From a virus (Duplodnaviria; Heunggongvirae; Uroviricota; Caudoviricetes), in IMG/VR virus record IMGVR_UViG_2627853869_000001: a stretch of DNA of 5,977 bases. One strand, written 5' to 3'. Under the pieces are notes generated by a model. That model was not told where the DNA came from and made no database searches. It was given only the letters and a program-made list of their open reading frames with translations. The position numbers and the translations under genes were made by a program. The number at the start of each line of letters is the position of its first letter. Position 1 is the stretch's first letter. This document shows positions 1-5,977 of this stretch, piece after piece.

Positions 1-1645
1 TTTCCGGTTCCTGTTGCGCTACTGGCTCAGGTTGTTTCGTTTCTGGCTCGTTTTGTTGCGTATTTGGGCTGTTTTGTTCCGCTTTCTGGTCGTTCTGTTC
101 CGATTCTTGCTGGTTCTGGTTTACAGAATCGCGGGTTTCAATCCCCTTTACCCATTTCGGATCATTCGGGTCGCTAATCCCTGCAACAAATTCTCCGCGA
201 GAGGCAGCAAGCAACTTATCGGCGTCAGGCTGGCTGATATTGGCTGCCTGCATAATTTTGTTTACTTCGTCAGCGGTAACTTTTACCGGCTCTGGTTGTG
301 CGGTCGTGTCAGATGCACCAGTATTTTGTTGTGAACCTGAGTACGTGCCGTTTTTACGTGCGAAGTATTCCTCTTTTGTGATTTCCGTAGCTCCCAAGGC
401 TAGTGCTTTTTCCAGACCAGAAAGTTTGTTTGCGCGACCGTATTTTTCGCCATCCTTGTCGGTGAAGAGGAAGTAGAACGGCCCCTCACGCTCTACAGAT
501 GGTTCGACTTCCACTTTGCATTCGGTTTTTTCGTTGCCCGGAATTGCCGTTTCCACTGCATCAGTTTCTGGTACTGGCGACGAGAGAGTATCAGTTGCGC
601 TCTGATTTCTTCCTTCATCTTCAAACACGCCCTTTGTAGTCAGGTATTCAGTAATGTATTTGTTCAGTGCCACAGGGTCTTTGTGAATGTCGATCGGACG
701 TTCACGGACAAGGCCAAAAATAGTCTGGCGGTCGTAGCGAAGGGCATCAGGCTGTTTGCGCATTGATGCCGAGATACGCTTCCAGTCTTCGCGGTCGTTG
801 TCGATAACTTCATTTTTTGCCCAGCGATGGATGCTGCCGTCAATGTTTCCGGCATCCACATCACCAGGCCAGAGAGCGTAGGCCAGTTCGTCATCCAGTG
901 TTTTCCATGTCTGCTTGTATTCGCGATGAATGGCAGCAATGACCGGGCTGATTTTTCCTGTTGAATTTTCACTGTGCTGTTGATTGGTTCTGGCGCGGGC
1001 GAGATCAACAACAGACGTGTATTTTCCGGTTTCCTTGCGTTCACCTTCGCGACGTTTTTTCCAGATGCGCATCTCTGCCTGAATTTCGGGCCATTTGGCA
1101 CCAGGCTTACATTTATGCTTAACCCACCCGATGGCATGCAGCTTAAGCTCCGGATACATGGCGTTAACTTCTGGCATTTTCATCAACGCTTCAACGATAT
1201 GTCCGTCGAATGTTGCCATGTCTTCCTGCAACAATTCCTGTGCGCTAATAACCATATCAACGGTGATGTTTTCACATGTGTCGAACTTAACCATGACAGC
1301 GTTCTGTACTTCAGGGGCCAGCTTGTCAAAAGTGACGTTCATCGGATCGGATTCAGTCTCAACCGGGACAAAGGAAGCAGACTCCTCATCCCAGCGGTTT
1401 TCCTGCATATATTCAGCATCCCAGGAATCGAGGGCAGGGCGGGGTATACCGGGTTTATCCTCGCAGACAAGAAATTTATAAGCGCAGTCCTGAGCAGCCG
1501 GATAATGCTCCAGGAATTGCCAGTGAAATTTTGCGCGGGCGCGACGTTCATCACCGGCTTCAATGGCTGTGGCTACAGCGACGGCACCTTCTTCCTTTAT
1601 TGCCTGTTCGTCCGGAATGGCGGCGCAAATAAAGACTTTACTCAT
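1..1645 (-). CDS. Large prophage early protein, N-terminal 548 codons; partial, C-terminus lies beyond window start. Occupies the position of ydfE in Qin-type and recE (exonuclease VIII) in Rac-type prophages
   Basis: Manual translation of the minus strand from ATG at 1645 (MSKVFICAAIPDEQAIKEEGAVAVATAIEAGDERRARAKFHWQFLEHY...) stays open with no stop through position 1. GAGGT Shine-Dalgarno lies 8 nt upstream of the ATG. The frame ends in the window with a Q/E/N/P-rich low-complexity linker (…DKLLAASRGEFVAGISDPNDPKWVKGIETRDSVNQNQQESEQNDQKAEQNSPNTQQNEPETKQPEPVAQQEPE). The RecE-like assignment rests on gene order and unverified recollection of a similar motif. Confidence 0.6.
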   Translation of the reverse strand, partial: MSKVFICAAIPDEQAIKEEGAVAVATAIEAGDERRARAKFHWQFLEHYPAAQDCAYKFLVCEDKPGIPRPALDSWDAEYMQENRWDEESASFVPVETESDPMNVTFDKLAPEVQNAVMVKFDTCENITVDMVISAQELLQEDMATFDGHIVEALMKMPEVNAMYPELKLHAIGWVKHKCKPGAKWPEIQAEMRIWKKRREGERKETGKYTSVVDLARARTNQQHSENSTGKISPVIAAIHREYKQTWKTLDDELAYALWPGDVDAGNIDGSIHRWAKNEVIDNDREDWKRISASMRKQPDALRYDRQTIFGLVRERPIDIHKDPVALNKYITEYLTTKGVFEDEGRNQSATDTLSSPVPETDAVETAIPGNEKTECKVEVEPSVEREGPFYFLFTDKDGEKYGRANKLSGLEKALALGATEITKEEYFARKNGTYSGSQQNTGASDTTAQPEPVKVTADEVNKIMQAANISQPDADKLLAASRGEFVAGISDPNDPKWVKGIETRDSVNQNQQESEQNDQKAEQNSPNTQQNEPETKQPEPVAQQEPE

Positions 1646-1737
1646 TTTGTTTTACCTCATTACAGATTTAAGGGTGAACAAATCCCTGCCATTGCTGGCA
1701 TATAAGAATGAAACCGGATATTTATTACGGAACTGTT

Positions 1738-1929
1738 TTAAAGACCTGCCGGGATTTCGTTATTATCCTGGTGAATAACTTTATCGACCGGGTAACAGTT
1801 ACCGGGAATTTTCTGTTCGGTTGCTGCAGTCACACACTCCTGCATTGTCCTGTGAACACTGACTGCAATATCAACTGGCTCTCCGGAAACAAGAAAAACT
1901 GTCAGAACAAGTGCAAATGCTGTATTCAT
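1738..1929 (-). CDS. ydfD: YdfD-like small membrane/lysis protein (63 aa) with N-terminal hydrophobic segment
   Basis: ORF MNTAFALVLTVFLVSGEPVDIAVSVHRTMQECVTAATEQKIPGNCYPVDKVIHQDNNEIPAGL. AAAGG lies 9 nt upstream of the ATG. The start codon overlaps the dicB stop as ATGA (translational coupling). Length and position match ydfD of the Qin dicB operon. Confidence 0.75.
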   Translation of the reverse strand: MNTAFALVLTVFLVSGEPVDIAVSVHRTMQECVTAATEQKIPGNCYPVDKVIHQDNNEIPAGL

Positions 1930-2114
1930 TGCCAGCATCCTTTTTGTATCGGACGTAAACGGGCCAGCATTGAAAGAATGCATATTTTATTTAATAGCTC
2001 CCGTTCGTGTTTTCTCTTGTTAATGGCATCTTCAGTAAATACAGGGTTACTGATATTGACACCAATTTCAAAACAACCTTCAGACGTATTAACGTTTGGT
2101 AATAACGTTTCCAT
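1926..2114 (-). CDS. dicB: DicB cell-division inhibitor (62 aa; MinC-interacting small protein)
   Basis: ORF METLLPNVNTSEGCFEIGVNISNPVFTEDAINKRKHERELLNKICILSMLARLRPIQKGCWQ. GAGGA Shine-Dalgarno lies 7 nt upstream of ATG at 2114. Sequence recognised as DicB; it sits immediately downstream of DicF as in Qin. Confidence 0.85.
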   Translation of the reverse strand: METLLPNVNTSEGCFEIGVNISNPVFTEDAINKRKHERELLNKICILSMLARLRPIQKGCWQ

Positions 2115-2283
2115 TATCGCGTCCTCAACAATGAATTTTGTGATGCGGTGCCTGGTGCCTCCAGGTGACGTTAACCAGTTAACAATTAACGCCGGATACA
2201 GAGAATCCACCCATAACACTGTTTTTGGTTTTAACTGTTCCGCGTGCGCTCAGCCGCATTCACCACATCACAAAATTCACTTT

Positions 2284-2326
2284 AAAAAGGGCGGCAGAGC
2301 AGTCACGGAGTAAAACTGATACCGCC
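2284..2326 (-). terminator. Intrinsic terminator hairpin of DicF (GGCGG…CCGCC stem followed by TTTTT)
   Basis: On the minus strand the GGCGG…CCGCC stem (+ coordinates 2290-2326) is followed immediately by a five-T run (+ coordinates 2284-2288). Confidence 0.55.
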
Positions 2327-2341
2327 AAACGTCACCAGAAA
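2284..2341 (-). ncRNA. dicF: DicF small regulatory RNA (ftsZ-targeting sRNA of dicB operon)
   Basis: Minus-strand sequence TTTCTGGTGACGTTTGGCGGTATCAGTTTTACTCCGTGACTGCTCTGCCGCCCTTTTT matches the DicF sRNA as recalled. It has a single-stranded 5' seed and a 3' GC hairpin followed by a T-run. Exact 5' and 3' ends are approximate. Confidence 0.75.
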
Positions 2342-2366
2342 ATTGATAACAGAGGGCGTTGCAGCG

Positions 2367-2403
2367 GGGTTGTCACTTAAGCGTATGGTCAACCTGACAA
2401 CCC
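2367..2403 (-). other. Perfect 9-bp inverted repeat (GGGTTGTCA-N19-TGACAACCC) forming a stem-loop in the untranslated operon RNA just 5' of DicF; candidate RNase processing structure
   Basis: Arms at 2367-2375 and 2395-2403 are exact reverse complements. The element lies about 25 nt upstream of the DicF 5' end on the transcribed strand. Confidence 0.4.
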
Positions 2404-2682
2404 GGTGTCCTCAACGGTGGAAGGAATAACCCCGCCATACTTACCGCCGCGCCATTTCGCGGATTGCCACAACCGGAAGCGCACGGTCGACGAAAATTTA
2501 ACGACAGGCTATCTATGAACCAGCTACCTCGCCGTGCGCTTTCGCGTTATGGTCTGACTTTTCAGGGAAATATCCTTTCAGTAAACTGTCAGTGCCGGAT
2601 GCTCACCCGTGTCCGGCGCACGCACTCCACCTCACCCGTGGAGAACTCCTTAATTACCAACCTTAGCTTCGTTGGTTAGCTA

Positions 2683-2901
2683 TTAACGCGGGTATGTAAT
2701 CATTCTGGCAATGCTTAATGCCGCTGCTTTTTCCAGATTAGTGATATCCTGCTCCAGAGCGGACAGATTTTCAGCCTGCTTAGCCCTGGCTTCATTGGCC
2801 CATTTCAGATCCTGCGCTGCATTAATTTTCTGGTGCATCCACTCATAAAGTTCATCATCGGTATAGTCTGGCGCGATGATGACGGGTTCTCGTTTCTGCA
2901 T
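2683..2901 (-). CDS. ydfC: YdfC-like small protein (72 aa), function unknown
   Basis: ORF MQKREPVIIAPDYTDDELYEWMHQKINAAQDLKWANEARAKQAENLSALEQDITNLEKAAALSIARMITYPR. GAGGA lies 6 nt upstream of the ATG. Length and order match ydfC of the dicB operon. Confidence 0.7.
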   Translation of the reverse strand: MQKREPVIIAPDYTDDELYEWMHQKINAAQDLKWANEARAKQAENLSALEQDITNLEKAAALSIARMITYPR

Positions 2902-2930
2902 ACTGATTCCTCGCGGTGCTGCTTCGCTTA

Positions 2931-3059
2931 TCAGCCGTTAGATTTTGCCGAGCTGGAAAGCGCCTGTTTAAACTCACTGAAGCTGAGAGCTTCTTCGCCT
3001 TCGGCAAGGCCTTCGAAGTATTCTTCGTAAGCCTTTTCCATGATTGTGTCGAAATCCAT
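2931..3059 (-). CDS. ydfB: YdfB-like small acidic protein (42 aa), function unknown
   Basis: ORF MDFDTIMEKAYEEYFEGLAEGEEALSFSEFKQALSSSAKSNG, below the size cutoff of the supplied ORF track. AGGTGAG lies upstream and the start follows the ydfA stop by 1 nt (TGA-T-ATG). Net charge is strongly negative. Confidence 0.65.
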   Translation of the reverse strand: MDFDTIMEKAYEEYFEGLAEGEEALSFSEFKQALSSSAKSNG

Positions 3060-3060
3060 A

Positions 3061-3216
3061 TCACTCACCTGAGTTTCTTTCCAGCCAGCGACGGGCACCA
3101 TTTTCGGTTTTAAACGTTTTGCTTTTGGTATACGTCATTGCGGTGAACGTGCCGTCCTGGTTTGGAAACACGCCGTACACCAGAGATTCGTTGTTGCCAA
3201 GATCGATAGTATCCAT
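3061..3216 (-). CDS. ydfA: YdfA-like small protein (51 aa), first gene of the leftward operon
   Basis: ORF MDTIDLGNNESLVYGVFPNQDGTFTAMTYTKSKTFKTENGARRWLERNSGE. GAGG lies 5 nt upstream of ATG at 3216. The longer track ORF (start 3372) would run into the promoter/operator region, so the short form is preferred. Confidence 0.7.
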   Translation of the reverse strand: MDTIDLGNNESLVYGVFPNQDGTFTAMTYTKSKTFKTENGARRWLERNSGE

Positions 3217-3331
3217 GCTGACCTCATTTCCCCTTAACGCCGGGGTAGCGGAACTGTTTGCGGAGAACACCGTGCGGTGTGTTGATGGAGGTAATTTAGT
3301 TTTCTCATTATTTTTCGTCAAGGTTTTTTGA

Positions 3332-3344
3332 TGAGAAAACTCAA
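3332..3344. promoter_or_regulatory. Operator-like motif TGAGAAAACTCAA (left operator, O_L analogue) in the leftward operon control region
   Basis: This 13-mer is identical to the one at 3868-3880. It is a near-palindrome (TTGAG-N4-CTCAA type) sitting between the repressor stop and ydfA. Candidate sigma70 elements on the minus strand flank it: -35 TTGACG at 3316-3321 with -10 TAAATT at 3293-3298, or a weaker pair at 3377-3382 and 3355-3360. Confidence 0.5.
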
Positions 3345-3408
3345 GTGCTGGCGCAAGATAAAGCCAATACATTGAAATGTAAGGCTTTAAAATTTTGTGA
3401 AGGGATGA

Positions 3409-3816
3409 TTATTGATGCTTGTTGCGTTTGCGAGCCTCTAATAGCTCGGTGAACAGGCGATTAAAATTCTCAACGCGGGCGCGGAGTTCGCTGAGTTGTG
3501 CTTGTTGCTCTGATTTAGGAAGTGCGCGATACAAACGCAGCATCTCTAACTCATCTTCCGATAAGTCTAGGGTACTATCGAGTGAAACAGGGGGAGCTGG
3601 TGTTTTGTCCTCGTCGCCAAACAGTATCCAGGTTGGTGAACATTGCAATACCTCGGCGAGGCGATGCAAATTTTGCCCGCGCGGGGCTGTATGGTCACTT
3701 TCCCATAATGAAATTGATGAGCCAGATACGCCAGCAGCTTTGCTTAAACCGTTTTGACTTAAGCCTACCTGCTTACGTCTTTCTCTAATGCGTTGACCTA
3801 AAGTTTTCTCGTTCAT
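3409..3816 (-). CDS. dicA: DicA-like HTH (XRE/CI-type) prophage repressor, 135 aa
   Basis: ORF MNEKTLGQRIRERRKQVGLSQNGLSKAAGVSGSSISLWESDHTAPRGQNLHRLAEVLQCSPTWILFGDEDK…ENFNRLFTELLEARKRNKHQ, with an N-terminal helix-turn-helix and divergent orientation to a cro-like gene. An in-frame upstream ATG at 3867 would add 17 aa, but the shorter start fits DicA length. No Shine-Dalgarno precedes either start, so the mRNA may be leaderless. Confidence 0.75.
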   Translation of the reverse strand: MNEKTLGQRIRERRKQVGLSQNGLSKAAGVSGSSISLWESDHTAPRGQNLHRLAEVLQCSPTWILFGDEDKTPAPPVSLDSTLDLSEDELEMLRLYRALPKSEQQAQLSELRARVENFNRLFTELLEARKRNKHQ

Positions 3817-3837
3817 ATTTAGATATCTTAATAATCC

Positions 3838-3867
3838 TTGACTTGAGATTCCTTGAGTGATTAGCAT
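3838..3867 (+). promoter_or_regulatory. Candidate rightward promoter (P_R analogue) for the cro-like gene: -35 TTGACT, 18-bp spacer, -10 TAGCAT
   Basis: TTGACT at 3838-3843 and TAGCAT at 3862-3867 sit upstream of the GGAGG RBS (3885-3889) and ATG at 3894. The -10 overlaps the operator motif. Confidence 0.45.
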
Positions 3868-3880
3868 TGAGAAAACTCAA
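3868..3880. promoter_or_regulatory. Operator-like motif TGAGAAAACTCAA (right operator, O_R analogue) in the dicA-dicC intergenic region
   Basis: Identical 13-mer to 3332-3344. Here it is embedded in the palindrome ATTGAG-aaaa-CTCAAT (3866-3881), between the candidate -10 and the RBS of the cro-like gene. Confidence 0.5.
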
Positions 3881-3893
3881 TATTGGAGGTGCG

Positions 3894-4121
3894 ATGTTTA
3901 AATCAGACGTAATTAATTTTTACGGTACGAAAGCCAAAGTAGCGAAAGCTGCTGGCGTTGACCCATCTGCTGTTTCTCAATGGCAAGAGCTAGTTCCTGA
4001 AGGTCGCGCGATGCGTCTACAGGAGGCATCTGGCGGCGAGCTTCTGTATGATCCCAAGGTTTATGACGAATATCGTAAGACGAAGCGGGCGGGGCGGTTG
4101 AACAATGAAAATCACTCCTGA
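3894..4121 (+). CDS. dicC: Cro-like small HTH regulator (DicC/YdaS family), 75 aa
   Basis: ORF MFKSDVINFYGTKAKVAKAAGVDPSAVSQWQELVPEGRAMRLQEASGGELLYDPKVYDEYRKTKRAGRLNNENHS. GGAGG RBS precedes the ATG. It is divergent from the repressor; the family assignment is from recollection of the YdaS/DicC pattern. Confidence 0.7.
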   Translation: MFKSDVINFYGTKAKVAKAAGVDPSAVSQWQELVPEGRAMRLQEASGGELLYDPKVYDEYRKTKRAGRLNNENHS

Positions 4122-4626
4122 ACAGGCTCGTGAGGCTCTGGATGCCTGGATATGTCGACCAGGAATGACACAGGAGCAGGCGACGATATTAATCACTGAA
4201 GCATTCTGGGCTTTGAAAGAGCGCCCGAACATCGATGTTCAGCGTGTCACAGATGAAGGTGGCGCGGTTGATCAGCGAGCGCTTGGCGTTAATCGAGTGA
4301 AGATATTCGAACGCTGGAAGGCTATCGACACCAGGGATAAGCGTGAAAAGTTCACGGCGCTAGTGCCTGCAATTATGGAGGCTATCCGGATTAATGATTT
4401 CAGGTTGTATCGTGAAATTAGTGACGGAAAAAGCATCACGTACATGATCGCCGGGTTAAACAAAGAATATGGCGATGTGGTGGAGTCCGGACTGCTTTTT
4501 GCTGATCCTGCCGTAGTGGATCGTGAAACTGACGAACTTATAGAAAAAGCAATTGCTTTCAAACTTGCGTATCGACAGCAATACCAACAAAAAGCTGGAT
4601 GGAATTATGAGCCTTCTTTTTGCTGA
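4105..4626 (+). CDS. YdaT-family protein (173 aa) in the position of lambda CII; putative regulator
   Basis: ORF MKITPEQAREALDAWICRPGMTQEQATILITEAFWALKERPNIDVQRV…. Its start overlaps the cro-like gene by 17 nt. The gene order repressor / cro-like / ydaT-like matches Rac-type racR-ydaS-ydaT modules. Confidence 0.55.
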   Translation: MKITPEQAREALDAWICRPGMTQEQATILITEAFWALKERPNIDVQRVTDEGGAVDQRALGVNRVKIFERWKAIDTRDKREKFTALVPAIMEAIRINDFRLYREISDGKSITYMIAGLNKEYGDVVESGLLFADPAVVDRETDELIEKAIAFKLAYRQQYQQKAGWNYEPSFC

Positions 4627-5384
4627 ACGCCCACTGGTTATAAACACACAGCTTGCGATGAAGATTGGCTTAAATGAAGCCATTGTGTTGCAGCAGTTGC
4701 ATTACTGGTTGAGAGATACCAATTCCGGCATGGAATGTGATGGTGTTCGCTGGATTTACAACACAACGGAACAATGGCTGGAACAGTTCCCATTCTGGTC
4801 AGAGTCAACGTTAAAGCGCGCGTTTGCAAGTCTGAAAACGCTGGGGCTCTTGCGTTGTGAAAAGCTCAATAAATCAAAGCGCGATATGACCAATTTCTAC
4901 ACGATTAACTATGGGAGCGAGCTTTTAGATGATGGCAAATTGAGCGAATCCATCGGTTCAAAATGCGCCGCTCCATCAGGTCAAAATGACACGATGGAAG
5001 AGGTCAAAATGAAACGCTCCATTGGTTCAAAACGACCCAATGTCATCGGGTCAAAATGGCCCGATGATCCTACAGAGAATACAACAGAGATTACTACAGA
5101 GAATAAAAACACTTTTCGTCCGGAAGCTTCGCAACCGGACCCGCAGACGGCTGAACAGGATTTTTTAATCCGGCACCCTGGCGCAGTTGTGTTTAGTGCG
5201 AAAAAACGCCAGTGGGGTAGCCAGGAGGATCTGGCGTGTGCGCAGTGGATATGGGGGCGGATCGTGGGTCTCTACGAACAGGCCGCCAGTGATGATGGCG
5301 AGATCATGCGACCAAAAGAGCCTAACTGGACTGTCTGGGCCAATGATGTGCGCACAATGCGGATGCTGGATGGCAGAAGCCACA
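4607..5384 (+). pseudogene. Lambda O-like replication initiator gene with internal iterons, 3'-truncated by IS insertion at 5385
   Basis: ORF from ATG 4607: MSLLFAERPLVINTQLAMKIGLNEAIVLQQLHYWLRDTNSGMECDGVRWIYNTTEQWLEQFPFWSESTLKRAFASLKTLGLLRCEK…. It overlaps the ydaT-like stop by 20 nt and contains the iteron array. Beyond 5384 the frame runs into the IS terminal repeat, so the 330-aa track ORF is a chimera. Confidence 0.6.
4951..5066. repeat. Five tandem iteron-like direct repeats (~23-bp period, core GGT(T)CAAAATG with dyad-symmetric ends CATCGG…CCGATG); putative prophage replication origin
   Basis: TCAAAA(T/C)G cores start at 4958, 4981, 5004, 5027 and 5051. Units 4 and 5 are internally palindromic (CATTGG…CCAATG; CATCGGG…CCCGATG). 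The array is followed at 5067-5110 by a moderately AT-rich (about 68%), purine-rich stretch with three (T/A)ACAGAGA(A/T)T repeats. Confidence 0.6.
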
Positions 5385-5424
5385 TGAACCGCTCCGGGTT
5401 TCCTGGAGAGTGTTTTATCTGTGA
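5385..5424. repeat. Right terminal inverted repeat of the IS3-family element
   Basis: The IS terminus sits immediately 3' of the OrfB stop (5427-5429). The exact inner boundary of the repeat is uncertain because the other end is outside the window. Confidence 0.5.
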
Positions 5425-5426
5425 AC

Positions 5427-5977
<551 letters not shown>

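Follow-up and report, generated by a model that had tools for sequence, protein, structure and literature searches.

Probable operators of a P22-type immunity switch with a distinct predicted DNA specificity in a Qin-like prophage of Escherichia coli

The locus considered here is best compared with immC of phage P22 and with the dicA/dicC region of the Qin prophage of Escherichia coli K-12. The P22 repressor c2 binds six symmetric operators of 18 bp (consensus ATTTAAGATATCTTAAAT), and its Val33 packs on the methyl groups of the TTAA core (PMC5175364). It touches operator positions 2-7 and 12-17 but not the central four base pairs, where it prefers A-tracts that narrow the minor groove (PMC4267663). 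K-12 DicA binds the operator Oc in vivo, and a single A-to-C change abolishes this binding (PMC3441716). DicA represses dicBp, and the antirepressor Rem relieves the repression (PMC10448788). Chromatin immunoprecipitation sequencing of DicC revealed binding on both sides of dicA and a palindromic TT[ACT]G / C[GAT]AA motif (PMC11430063). Here we analyze a stretch of 5,977 nucleotides (IMG/VR virus record IMGVR_UViG_2627853869_000001; below, the window), which is an E. coli prophage segment with an immunity region of the Qin-like kind. A sequence-only reading of the window had noticed the same 13-bp motif on both sides of the repressor gene and had interpreted it as the O_L/O_R arrangement of a lambdoid immunity region. 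Judging from sequence comparisons, these repeats very probably serve as operators in a lambdoid immunity switch of the P22 (DicA/DicC) type that has its own DNA specificity.

The 13-mer TGAGAAAACTCAA is present exactly, on the plus strand, at 3332-3344 and at 3868-3880, as had been claimed. That it occurs nowhere else in the window holds for exact copies, but a third copy in inverted orientation with one mismatch (TGAGAAAACTAAA, 3295-3307) and a related site at 3817-3832 had been missed. Around the right-hand copy, the dyad symmetry extends to 16 bp (ATTGAG-AAAA-CTCAAT, 3866-3881). We designate the three strong sites O_L1, O_L2 and O_R1 and the related site O_R3-like (Table 1). With at most two mismatches allowed, the window contains the pattern three times, where 0.21 matches are expected, and none of 200 shuffles reached three. 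When the two intergenic regions, 192 and 77 bp long, were simulated 3000 times with a first-order Markov model, an exact word of at least 13 bp was shared between them, on either strand, in 2 runs. Both intergenic regions are A+T-rich (58-66%) and the AAAA core is of low complexity, which makes short repeats likelier and raises the question of whether the repeat could be a functionless product of chance or of a recent duplication. The simulation result and the third copy argue against this, as does the comparative evidence.

The comparison set was assembled by a genome scan with a DicA alignment and a protein search of phage records, which yielded modules of several immunity types. Repressors of Buttiauxella ferragutiae and B. 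gaviniae are 74-76% identical to that of the window and share its recognition helix (VS[G/D]SSISLWES). Both Buttiauxella loci, one of which (L005) has 69% overall DNA identity to the window, hold all three strong sites at equivalent places (for example, ATTGAGAAAACTCAAT and CTTGAGAAAACTAAC). In the Buttiauxella O_L region, 50 of 56 site positions are identical (89%), compared to 119 of 242 positions (49%) in the surrounding non-coding sequence, so that the sites were kept while their flanks diverged. Moreover, each of five or six immunity types has a dyad of its own that is reused at O_R1, O_L1 and O_L2, once after the cro -10 element and twice around the leftward -35 element, with 34-36 bp between the members of the O_L pair. 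The dyad is TGTTAGT-N4-ACTAACA in K-12 Qin and Citrobacter sp. NCU1, CCTTAGG-AAAA-YCTAAGG in PPompW and a Klebsiella phage, and ACTAAC-AAAA-GTTAGT in Cronobacter phage phiES15. Both the conservation in Buttiauxella and the presence of other dyads at the same three places speak against a chance duplication, which we consider extremely improbable.

Across the immunity types, the sequence of the sites changes together with the recognition helix of the repressor. O_R1 differs from the O_L sites of its own type at 0-4 of 16 positions and from those of other types at 4-8, the lowest cross-type value of 4 being contributed by the degenerate sites of C. braakii L007. The most direct comparison is with K-12 Qin, which has the same gene order and gene lengths. 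Window positions 1223-3287 and 3991-4384 are 97-98% identical to K-12 Qin, and between them there is only one 66-bp match, which encodes a stretch of the repressor, VLQCSPTWILFGDEDK, that is conserved. The sole segment that differs from K-12 Qin is therefore a cassette of 703 bp, bounded by O_L1 on one side and by the end of the helix-turn-helix (HTH) region of cro, comprising about the first 32 codons, on the other. The breakpoints, at 3287/3288 and about 3990, are nearly the same in the comparison with PPompW prophages. The cassette fits the classical definition of an immunity region. The proposal that the motif defines the immunity specificity of this prophage is consistent with both its covariation with the recognition helix and its position inside this segment.

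As in the window, K-12 Qin has one dyad (Oc) after the -10 element of dicCp and two sites flanking the -35 element of dicBp. The dyad sequences of the two loci differ, however. The K-12 dyad is TGTTAGT-TATG-ACTAACA and that of the window is ATTGAG-AAAA-CTCAAT, and the respective recognition helices are SHVSVSQ and SGSSISL. A comparison with the published DicA operators, which had been suggested as a check, did not reveal a common specificity: Oc has 7-8 mismatches in 16 positions to the window O_L sites, O_R1 has 6-7 to the K-12 O_L sites, and the window sites do not follow the K-12 pattern TTAG-N6-CTAA. Based on the differing dyads and recognition helices, the window prophage and K-12 Qin are predicted to be heteroimmune.

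The binding domain of the window repressor can be related to that of P22 c2. Residues 1-68 align without gaps to the N-terminal domain of c2 (1ADR, 2R1J; E = 8e-16), and the N-terminal domains are approximately 47% identical (tblastn). When O_R1 is placed on P22 operator numbering, its perfect arms occupy the contacted positions and AAAA occupies the noncontacted ones, in a dyad of about 18 bp. The cro-like gene belongs to the Pfam family P22_Cro. We read the sequence of P22 immC directly and found that O_R3 abuts the c2 ATG, O_R2 follows the -35 hexamer TTGACT, and O_R1 overlaps the -10 element, with 25 and 23 bp between centers. On the leftward side of P22, TAAATT is overlapped by O_L1, and O_L2 is found upstream of TTGACC, with 35 bp between the two sites. 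This layout recurs in the window almost base for base, down to the GATTCC center of the O_R2 position and the TAAGAT that precedes the repressor ATG. The O_R centers at 3824.5, 3849.5 and 3873.5 are 25 and 24 bp apart, and the O_L pair, which flanks the predicted -35 element, is spaced at 36 bp. Based on this match, 3816-3833 is the counterpart of O_R3 and 3841-3858 is the counterpart of O_R2.

The placement of the sites relative to the predicted promoters is likewise that of P22. O_R1 begins inside the predicted rightward -10 element and covers the start region of the cro-like transcript, in agreement with the earlier description of the right copy as overlapping -10/+1. O_L1 covers the -10 element and spacer of the predicted leftward promoter, and O_L2 lies just upstream of its -35 element; the arms of each contain 1-2 mismatches. 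The operators thus lie at both early promoters, overlapping -10 or -35 elements as predicted, with the repressor gene between O_L and O_R and divergent from cro. The leftward promoter aligns with TTGACC-17-TAAATT of P22, and the rightward promoter shares TTGACT with P22 P_R and aligns also with K-12 dicCp. The proposed O_L/O_R arrangement was thereby upheld by the placement in P22 and K-12 Qin and refined to two O_L sites and a strong O_R site accompanied by an O_R3-like site. No convincing candidate was found for a third O_L site past O_L2, as is present in P22. The general logic is shared with phage lambda, where the divergent repressor and cro genes also share multiple dyads at P_R/P_RM and a second set is located at the leftward promoter downstream of the repressor gene. 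Lambda differs in the sequence family of the repressor fold, in the length and spacing of the sites and in having O_L sites adjacent to one another, whereas the O_L pair of the window flanks the -35 element.

Table 1. Features of the immunity region and of neighboring genes in the window (numbered from its first nucleotide)
Feature	Position	Strand	Details
ydfD	1738-1929	-	
dicB	1926-2114	-	
DicF RNA	2289-2340	-	Rfam match, 76.7 bits
ydfC	2683-2901	-	
ydfB	2931-3059	-	
ydfA	3061-3216	-	DUF1391 (Pfam)
Immunity cassette	3288-3990		Encloses all operators together with the repressor gene and the HTH-coding part of cro
O_L1, promoter-proximal	3293-3310		AATTTAGTTTTCTCATTA; core 3295-3307 is the inverted one-mismatch 13-mer; center 3301.5
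Predicted leftward promoter (dicBp/P_L equivalent)	3293-3321	-	-35 TTGACG 3321-3316; 17-bp spacer; -10 TAAATT 3298-3293
O_L2, distal	3329-3346		TGATGAGAAAACTCAAGT; contains exact 13-mer 3332-3344; center 3337.5
DicA-like repressor gene	3409-3816	-	135 amino acids; HTH_3; WP_001003382.1
O_R3-like site	3816-3833		TATTTAGATATCTTAATA; abuts repressor ATG; center 3824.5
Predicted rightward promoter (dicCp/P_R equivalent)	3838-3867	+	-35 TTGACT 3838-3843; 18-bp spacer; -10 TAGCAT 3862-3867
Stretch at O_R2 position	3841-3858		ACTTGAGATTCCTTGAGT; center 3849.5; counterpart of P22 O_R2 ACTAAAGATTCCTTTAGT
O_R1, strongest site	3865-3882		C-ATTGAG-AAAA-CTCAAT-A; perfect 6-bp arms; exact 13-mer 3868-3880; center 3873.5
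Cro/DicC-like gene	3894-4121	+	75 amino acids; P22_Cro family (Pfam)
YdaT-family gene	4105-4626	+	

The same immunity region is present in the Escherichia phage mEp460_ev081, with a repressor that is 99.3% identical. This is a functional temperate phage with homologues of dicB, dicF, dicAC and rem (PMC10448788). A position matrix derived from the nine strong sites in the window and in two Buttiauxella relatives was used to scan the window and the 45.9-kb mEp460 genome. In both, the three highest scores were those of O_R1 (26.1), O_L1 (23.4) and O_L2 (20.6). The core of the O_R3-like site (3817-3832) came fourth with 12.4, tied with one unrelated match in the mEp460 genome, and third when half-sites alone were scored. 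The scan identified no further operators elsewhere in this genome, the remaining matches being scattered and scoring 12.4 or lower. By comparison, the simple pattern TTGAG-N4-CTCAA with up to two mismatches has 13 matches in the mEp460 genome against 21.9 expected, of which 5 are inside the 600-bp immunity region. An additional operator-like sequence, AACGAGAAAACTTTAG, is located on the minus strand at 3798-3813 within repressor codons 2-6 (matrix score 10.8). It is probably fortuitous because it is lost in Buttiauxella, which has a Met codon where the window has Lys.

The assignment of the two weaker O_R sites is less straightforward. The O_R3-like core (ATTTAGATATCTTAAT, ATTTAG-ATAT-CTTAAT) overlaps TAAGAT at 3830-3825 on the minus strand, a candidate -10 element for the repressor's own promoter, which would give a nearly leaderless repressor mRNA. 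The O_R3-like sequence is identical in Buttiauxella at 28 of 28 bases. At the O_R2 position, where P22 has an intact operator, the window sequence is degenerate: the left half of 3841-3858 fits the consensus half-site but the right half does not, with CTTGAG in place of the expected CTCAAG. The TTGAG half-sites at 3842-3857 had earlier been put forward as lower-affinity sites. They do lie at the position of P22 O_R2, but they score 7.3 bits (half-sites only), outside the top 15 genome-wide, and TTGAG is lost in Buttiauxella. Judged from its sequence, 3841-3858 may be a weak site that depends on cooperativity.

Several observations weigh against our interpretation of the locus or of parts of it. 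In K-12, the sites Om and Oa, which sit at the positions of window 3841-3858 and 3816-3833, showed no DicA binding when each was assayed on its own (PMC3441716). It may thus be that neither of the two weaker O_R sites of the window is a repressor site. The O_R3-like sequence is also kept in C. braakii L007, the O_R1 of which differs, and its conservation could reflect the repressor promoter or the 5' end of the gene instead of an operator. The promoter hexamers match the consensus at 9 of 12 positions, and the number of such matches in the region is not above shuffled expectation. As consensus matches only, these promoters derive their support from the alignment with P22 and K-12. Finally, the K-12 Qin operators are experimentally supported, whereas those of the window are predicted from sequence.

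It could also be argued that the DicA-like repressor does not bind the sites, which would instead be occupied exclusively by the Cro/DicC-like protein or by YdaT (CII-like). The K-12 genome-wide binding data concern DicC (PMC11430063), and YdaT proteins also bind inverted repeats (PMC9986795). On the other hand, DicA of K-12 both occupies Oc in vivo and acts as a repressor of dicBp (PMC3441716, PMC10448788), the geometry of the sites suits a P22 c2-type domain, which belongs to the repressor, and the repressor recognition helix covaries with the site. Use of the same sites by Cro is expected and hence is not an alternative to repressor binding. For YdaT of prophage CP-933P, the footprinted site is TTGATT-N6-AATCAA, located where the cro-like gene ends (PMC9986795). 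YdaT was rejected as the binder of the 13-mer sites, given that its known motif and location differ. A look-alike of the YdaT site, TTGAAC-AATGAA-AATCAC, is present in the window at 4098-4115, where the cro-like gene meets the YdaT-family gene, which is the same relative place as in CP-933P (a P_RE-like region), and not at O_L or O_R. Overall, we regard binding by Cro or YdaT to the exclusion of the repressor as unlikely.

Palindromes at such positions might function as RNA hairpins, belonging to the leader of cro or to the 3' end of the repressor mRNA, as opposed to DNA sites. The O_R1 copy, located where the predicted cro transcript begins, is able to pair into a 6-bp stem (-4.4 kcal/mol, z = -3.9). 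The O_L2 copy, however, folds at -2.4 kcal/mol, no better than shuffled sequences, and the O_L1 copy remains unfolded (0 kcal/mol). The O_L2 copy also precedes the leftward promoter, and the copies, which point in opposite directions, are positioned according to the -10 and -35 elements. Based on the folds and the placement relative to promoters, we rejected an RNA role, which has hardly any likelihood.

Interpreting the repeats as operators suggests the following model. A dimer of the DicA-like repressor would bind each 16- to 18-bp dyad (consensus A-TTGAG-AAAA-CTCAA-T), with one HTH contacting each 6-bp arm. The central four A:T pairs would remain uncontacted and favor a narrow minor groove, as in P22 c2. 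Repressor bound at O_R1, over -10 and +1, would block transcription of cro, ydaT and the replication genes, and repressor bound at O_L1, over -10, and at O_L2, upstream of -35, would block ydfABC-dicF-dicB. The Cro-like protein is expected on the same sites. Through the O_R3-like site over the start of the repressor gene, Cro or excess repressor would probably shut off repressor synthesis. P22 c2 has 216 amino acids, whereas the 135-residue repressor of the window has a short C-terminal domain and lacks the RecA-dependent cleavage domain. Apart from its N-terminal HTH_3, Pfam identifies HTH families only, and no LexA/S24-type peptidase or autocleavage domain. By contrast, lambda CI is cleaved through RecA. 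As the analogous K-12 Qin locus suggests, a Rem-type antirepressor is expected to mediate induction. A rem-like gene is present in mEp460, outside the window.

The half-site core is TTAA in P22 and TTGA/TCAA in the window, and the recognition helix is SNVAISQ in P22 c2 and SGSSISL in the window repressor (N32G, V33S, Q37L). The repressors of K-12 and PPompW keep Val33 and Gln37, with CTAA cores. It is conceivable, although we hold this only tentatively and as the less probable possibility, that specificity has switched naturally here while the P22 c2 fold was retained. With TTGA in place of TTAA as the core, one of the four thymine methyls packed round Val33 in P22 c2 would be lost, and the window repressor with Gly32, Ser33 and Leu37 may read G5/C14 by a mode of contact other than the "valine cleft".

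The gene context given by the sequence-only reading (repressor, leftward dicB-type operon and divergent cro-like gene) was confirmed by annotation, by Pfam and by identity to DicA and DicC. Gene calls were taken from the RefSeq annotation of an identical locus and complemented by our own Pfam and Rfam checks. The repressor is 57% identical to K-12 DicA over 127 aligned residues, including the conserved stretch named above and the C-terminal helices, and the Cro-like protein is 70% identical to K-12 DicC. Under the repressor-proximal promoter, the leftward operon has the order ydfA-ydfB-ydfC-dicF-dicB characteristic of a Qin-type module, in place of the early-left genes of P22. Its leader, 3220-3290 on a minus-strand transcript, is conserved across all DicA-type loci. 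Within it are CATCAA, a short hairpin (3267-3280) and GTTCCGCTACCC with CCCC...GGGG after it. The leader may serve in processing or antitermination; its consensus fold had no compensatory changes in support of a structured RNA. Between O_L2 and the repressor stop codon, a block at 3363-3385 with a small palindrome (ACATTGAAATGT) is kept in Buttiauxella. It is not operator-like and may be a weak terminator or a 3'-end hairpin of the repressor mRNA.

Among 5426 complete E. coli genomes, 3838 have some match to window positions 3200-4110, and 797 hold at least 80% of this interval, mostly at greater than 99% identity. The phage mEp460_ev081 (L016) matches the window at approximately 97% over 1-2548 and 3073-5384, and the ydfC-ydfB segment at 2549-3072 is unmatched, so that the leftward operon, too, is mosaic in its content. 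The match to intact relatives (L001 and mEp460) ends at 5384, and an open reading frame for an IS3-family transposase is located at 5427-5945 on the minus strand. An insertion sequence appears to interrupt the replication gene (window 5385-5977), and this copy of the prophage is thus probably defective. Three further loci (L003, L004 and L008) are 99% identical to the E. coli prophage, yet come from metagenome bins labeled Bacillota, Veillonella parvula and Collinsella; these labels probably result from contamination by Enterobacteriaceae contigs.

In conclusion, the architecture described here is that of P22 immC and K-12 Qin and does not introduce a new principle. The specific motif is new to the literature that we searched, in which the exact 13-mer TGAGAAAACTCAA is absent. 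Our results predict the specificity ATTGAG-AAAA-CTCAAT for a widespread type of prophage that includes the viable phage mEp460_ev081, and the immunity allele is found in approximately 15% of complete E. coli genomes, alongside dicB and dicF. The operator coordinates provided here are ready for use in annotation and in work on cross-talk between prophages. If G5/C14 is indeed read by another mode of contact, the operator-repressor pair would constitute a compact model of the evolution of heteroimmunity. A specificity switch, if true, would mean that strains carrying this allele have a separate regulon over cell-division inhibitors.

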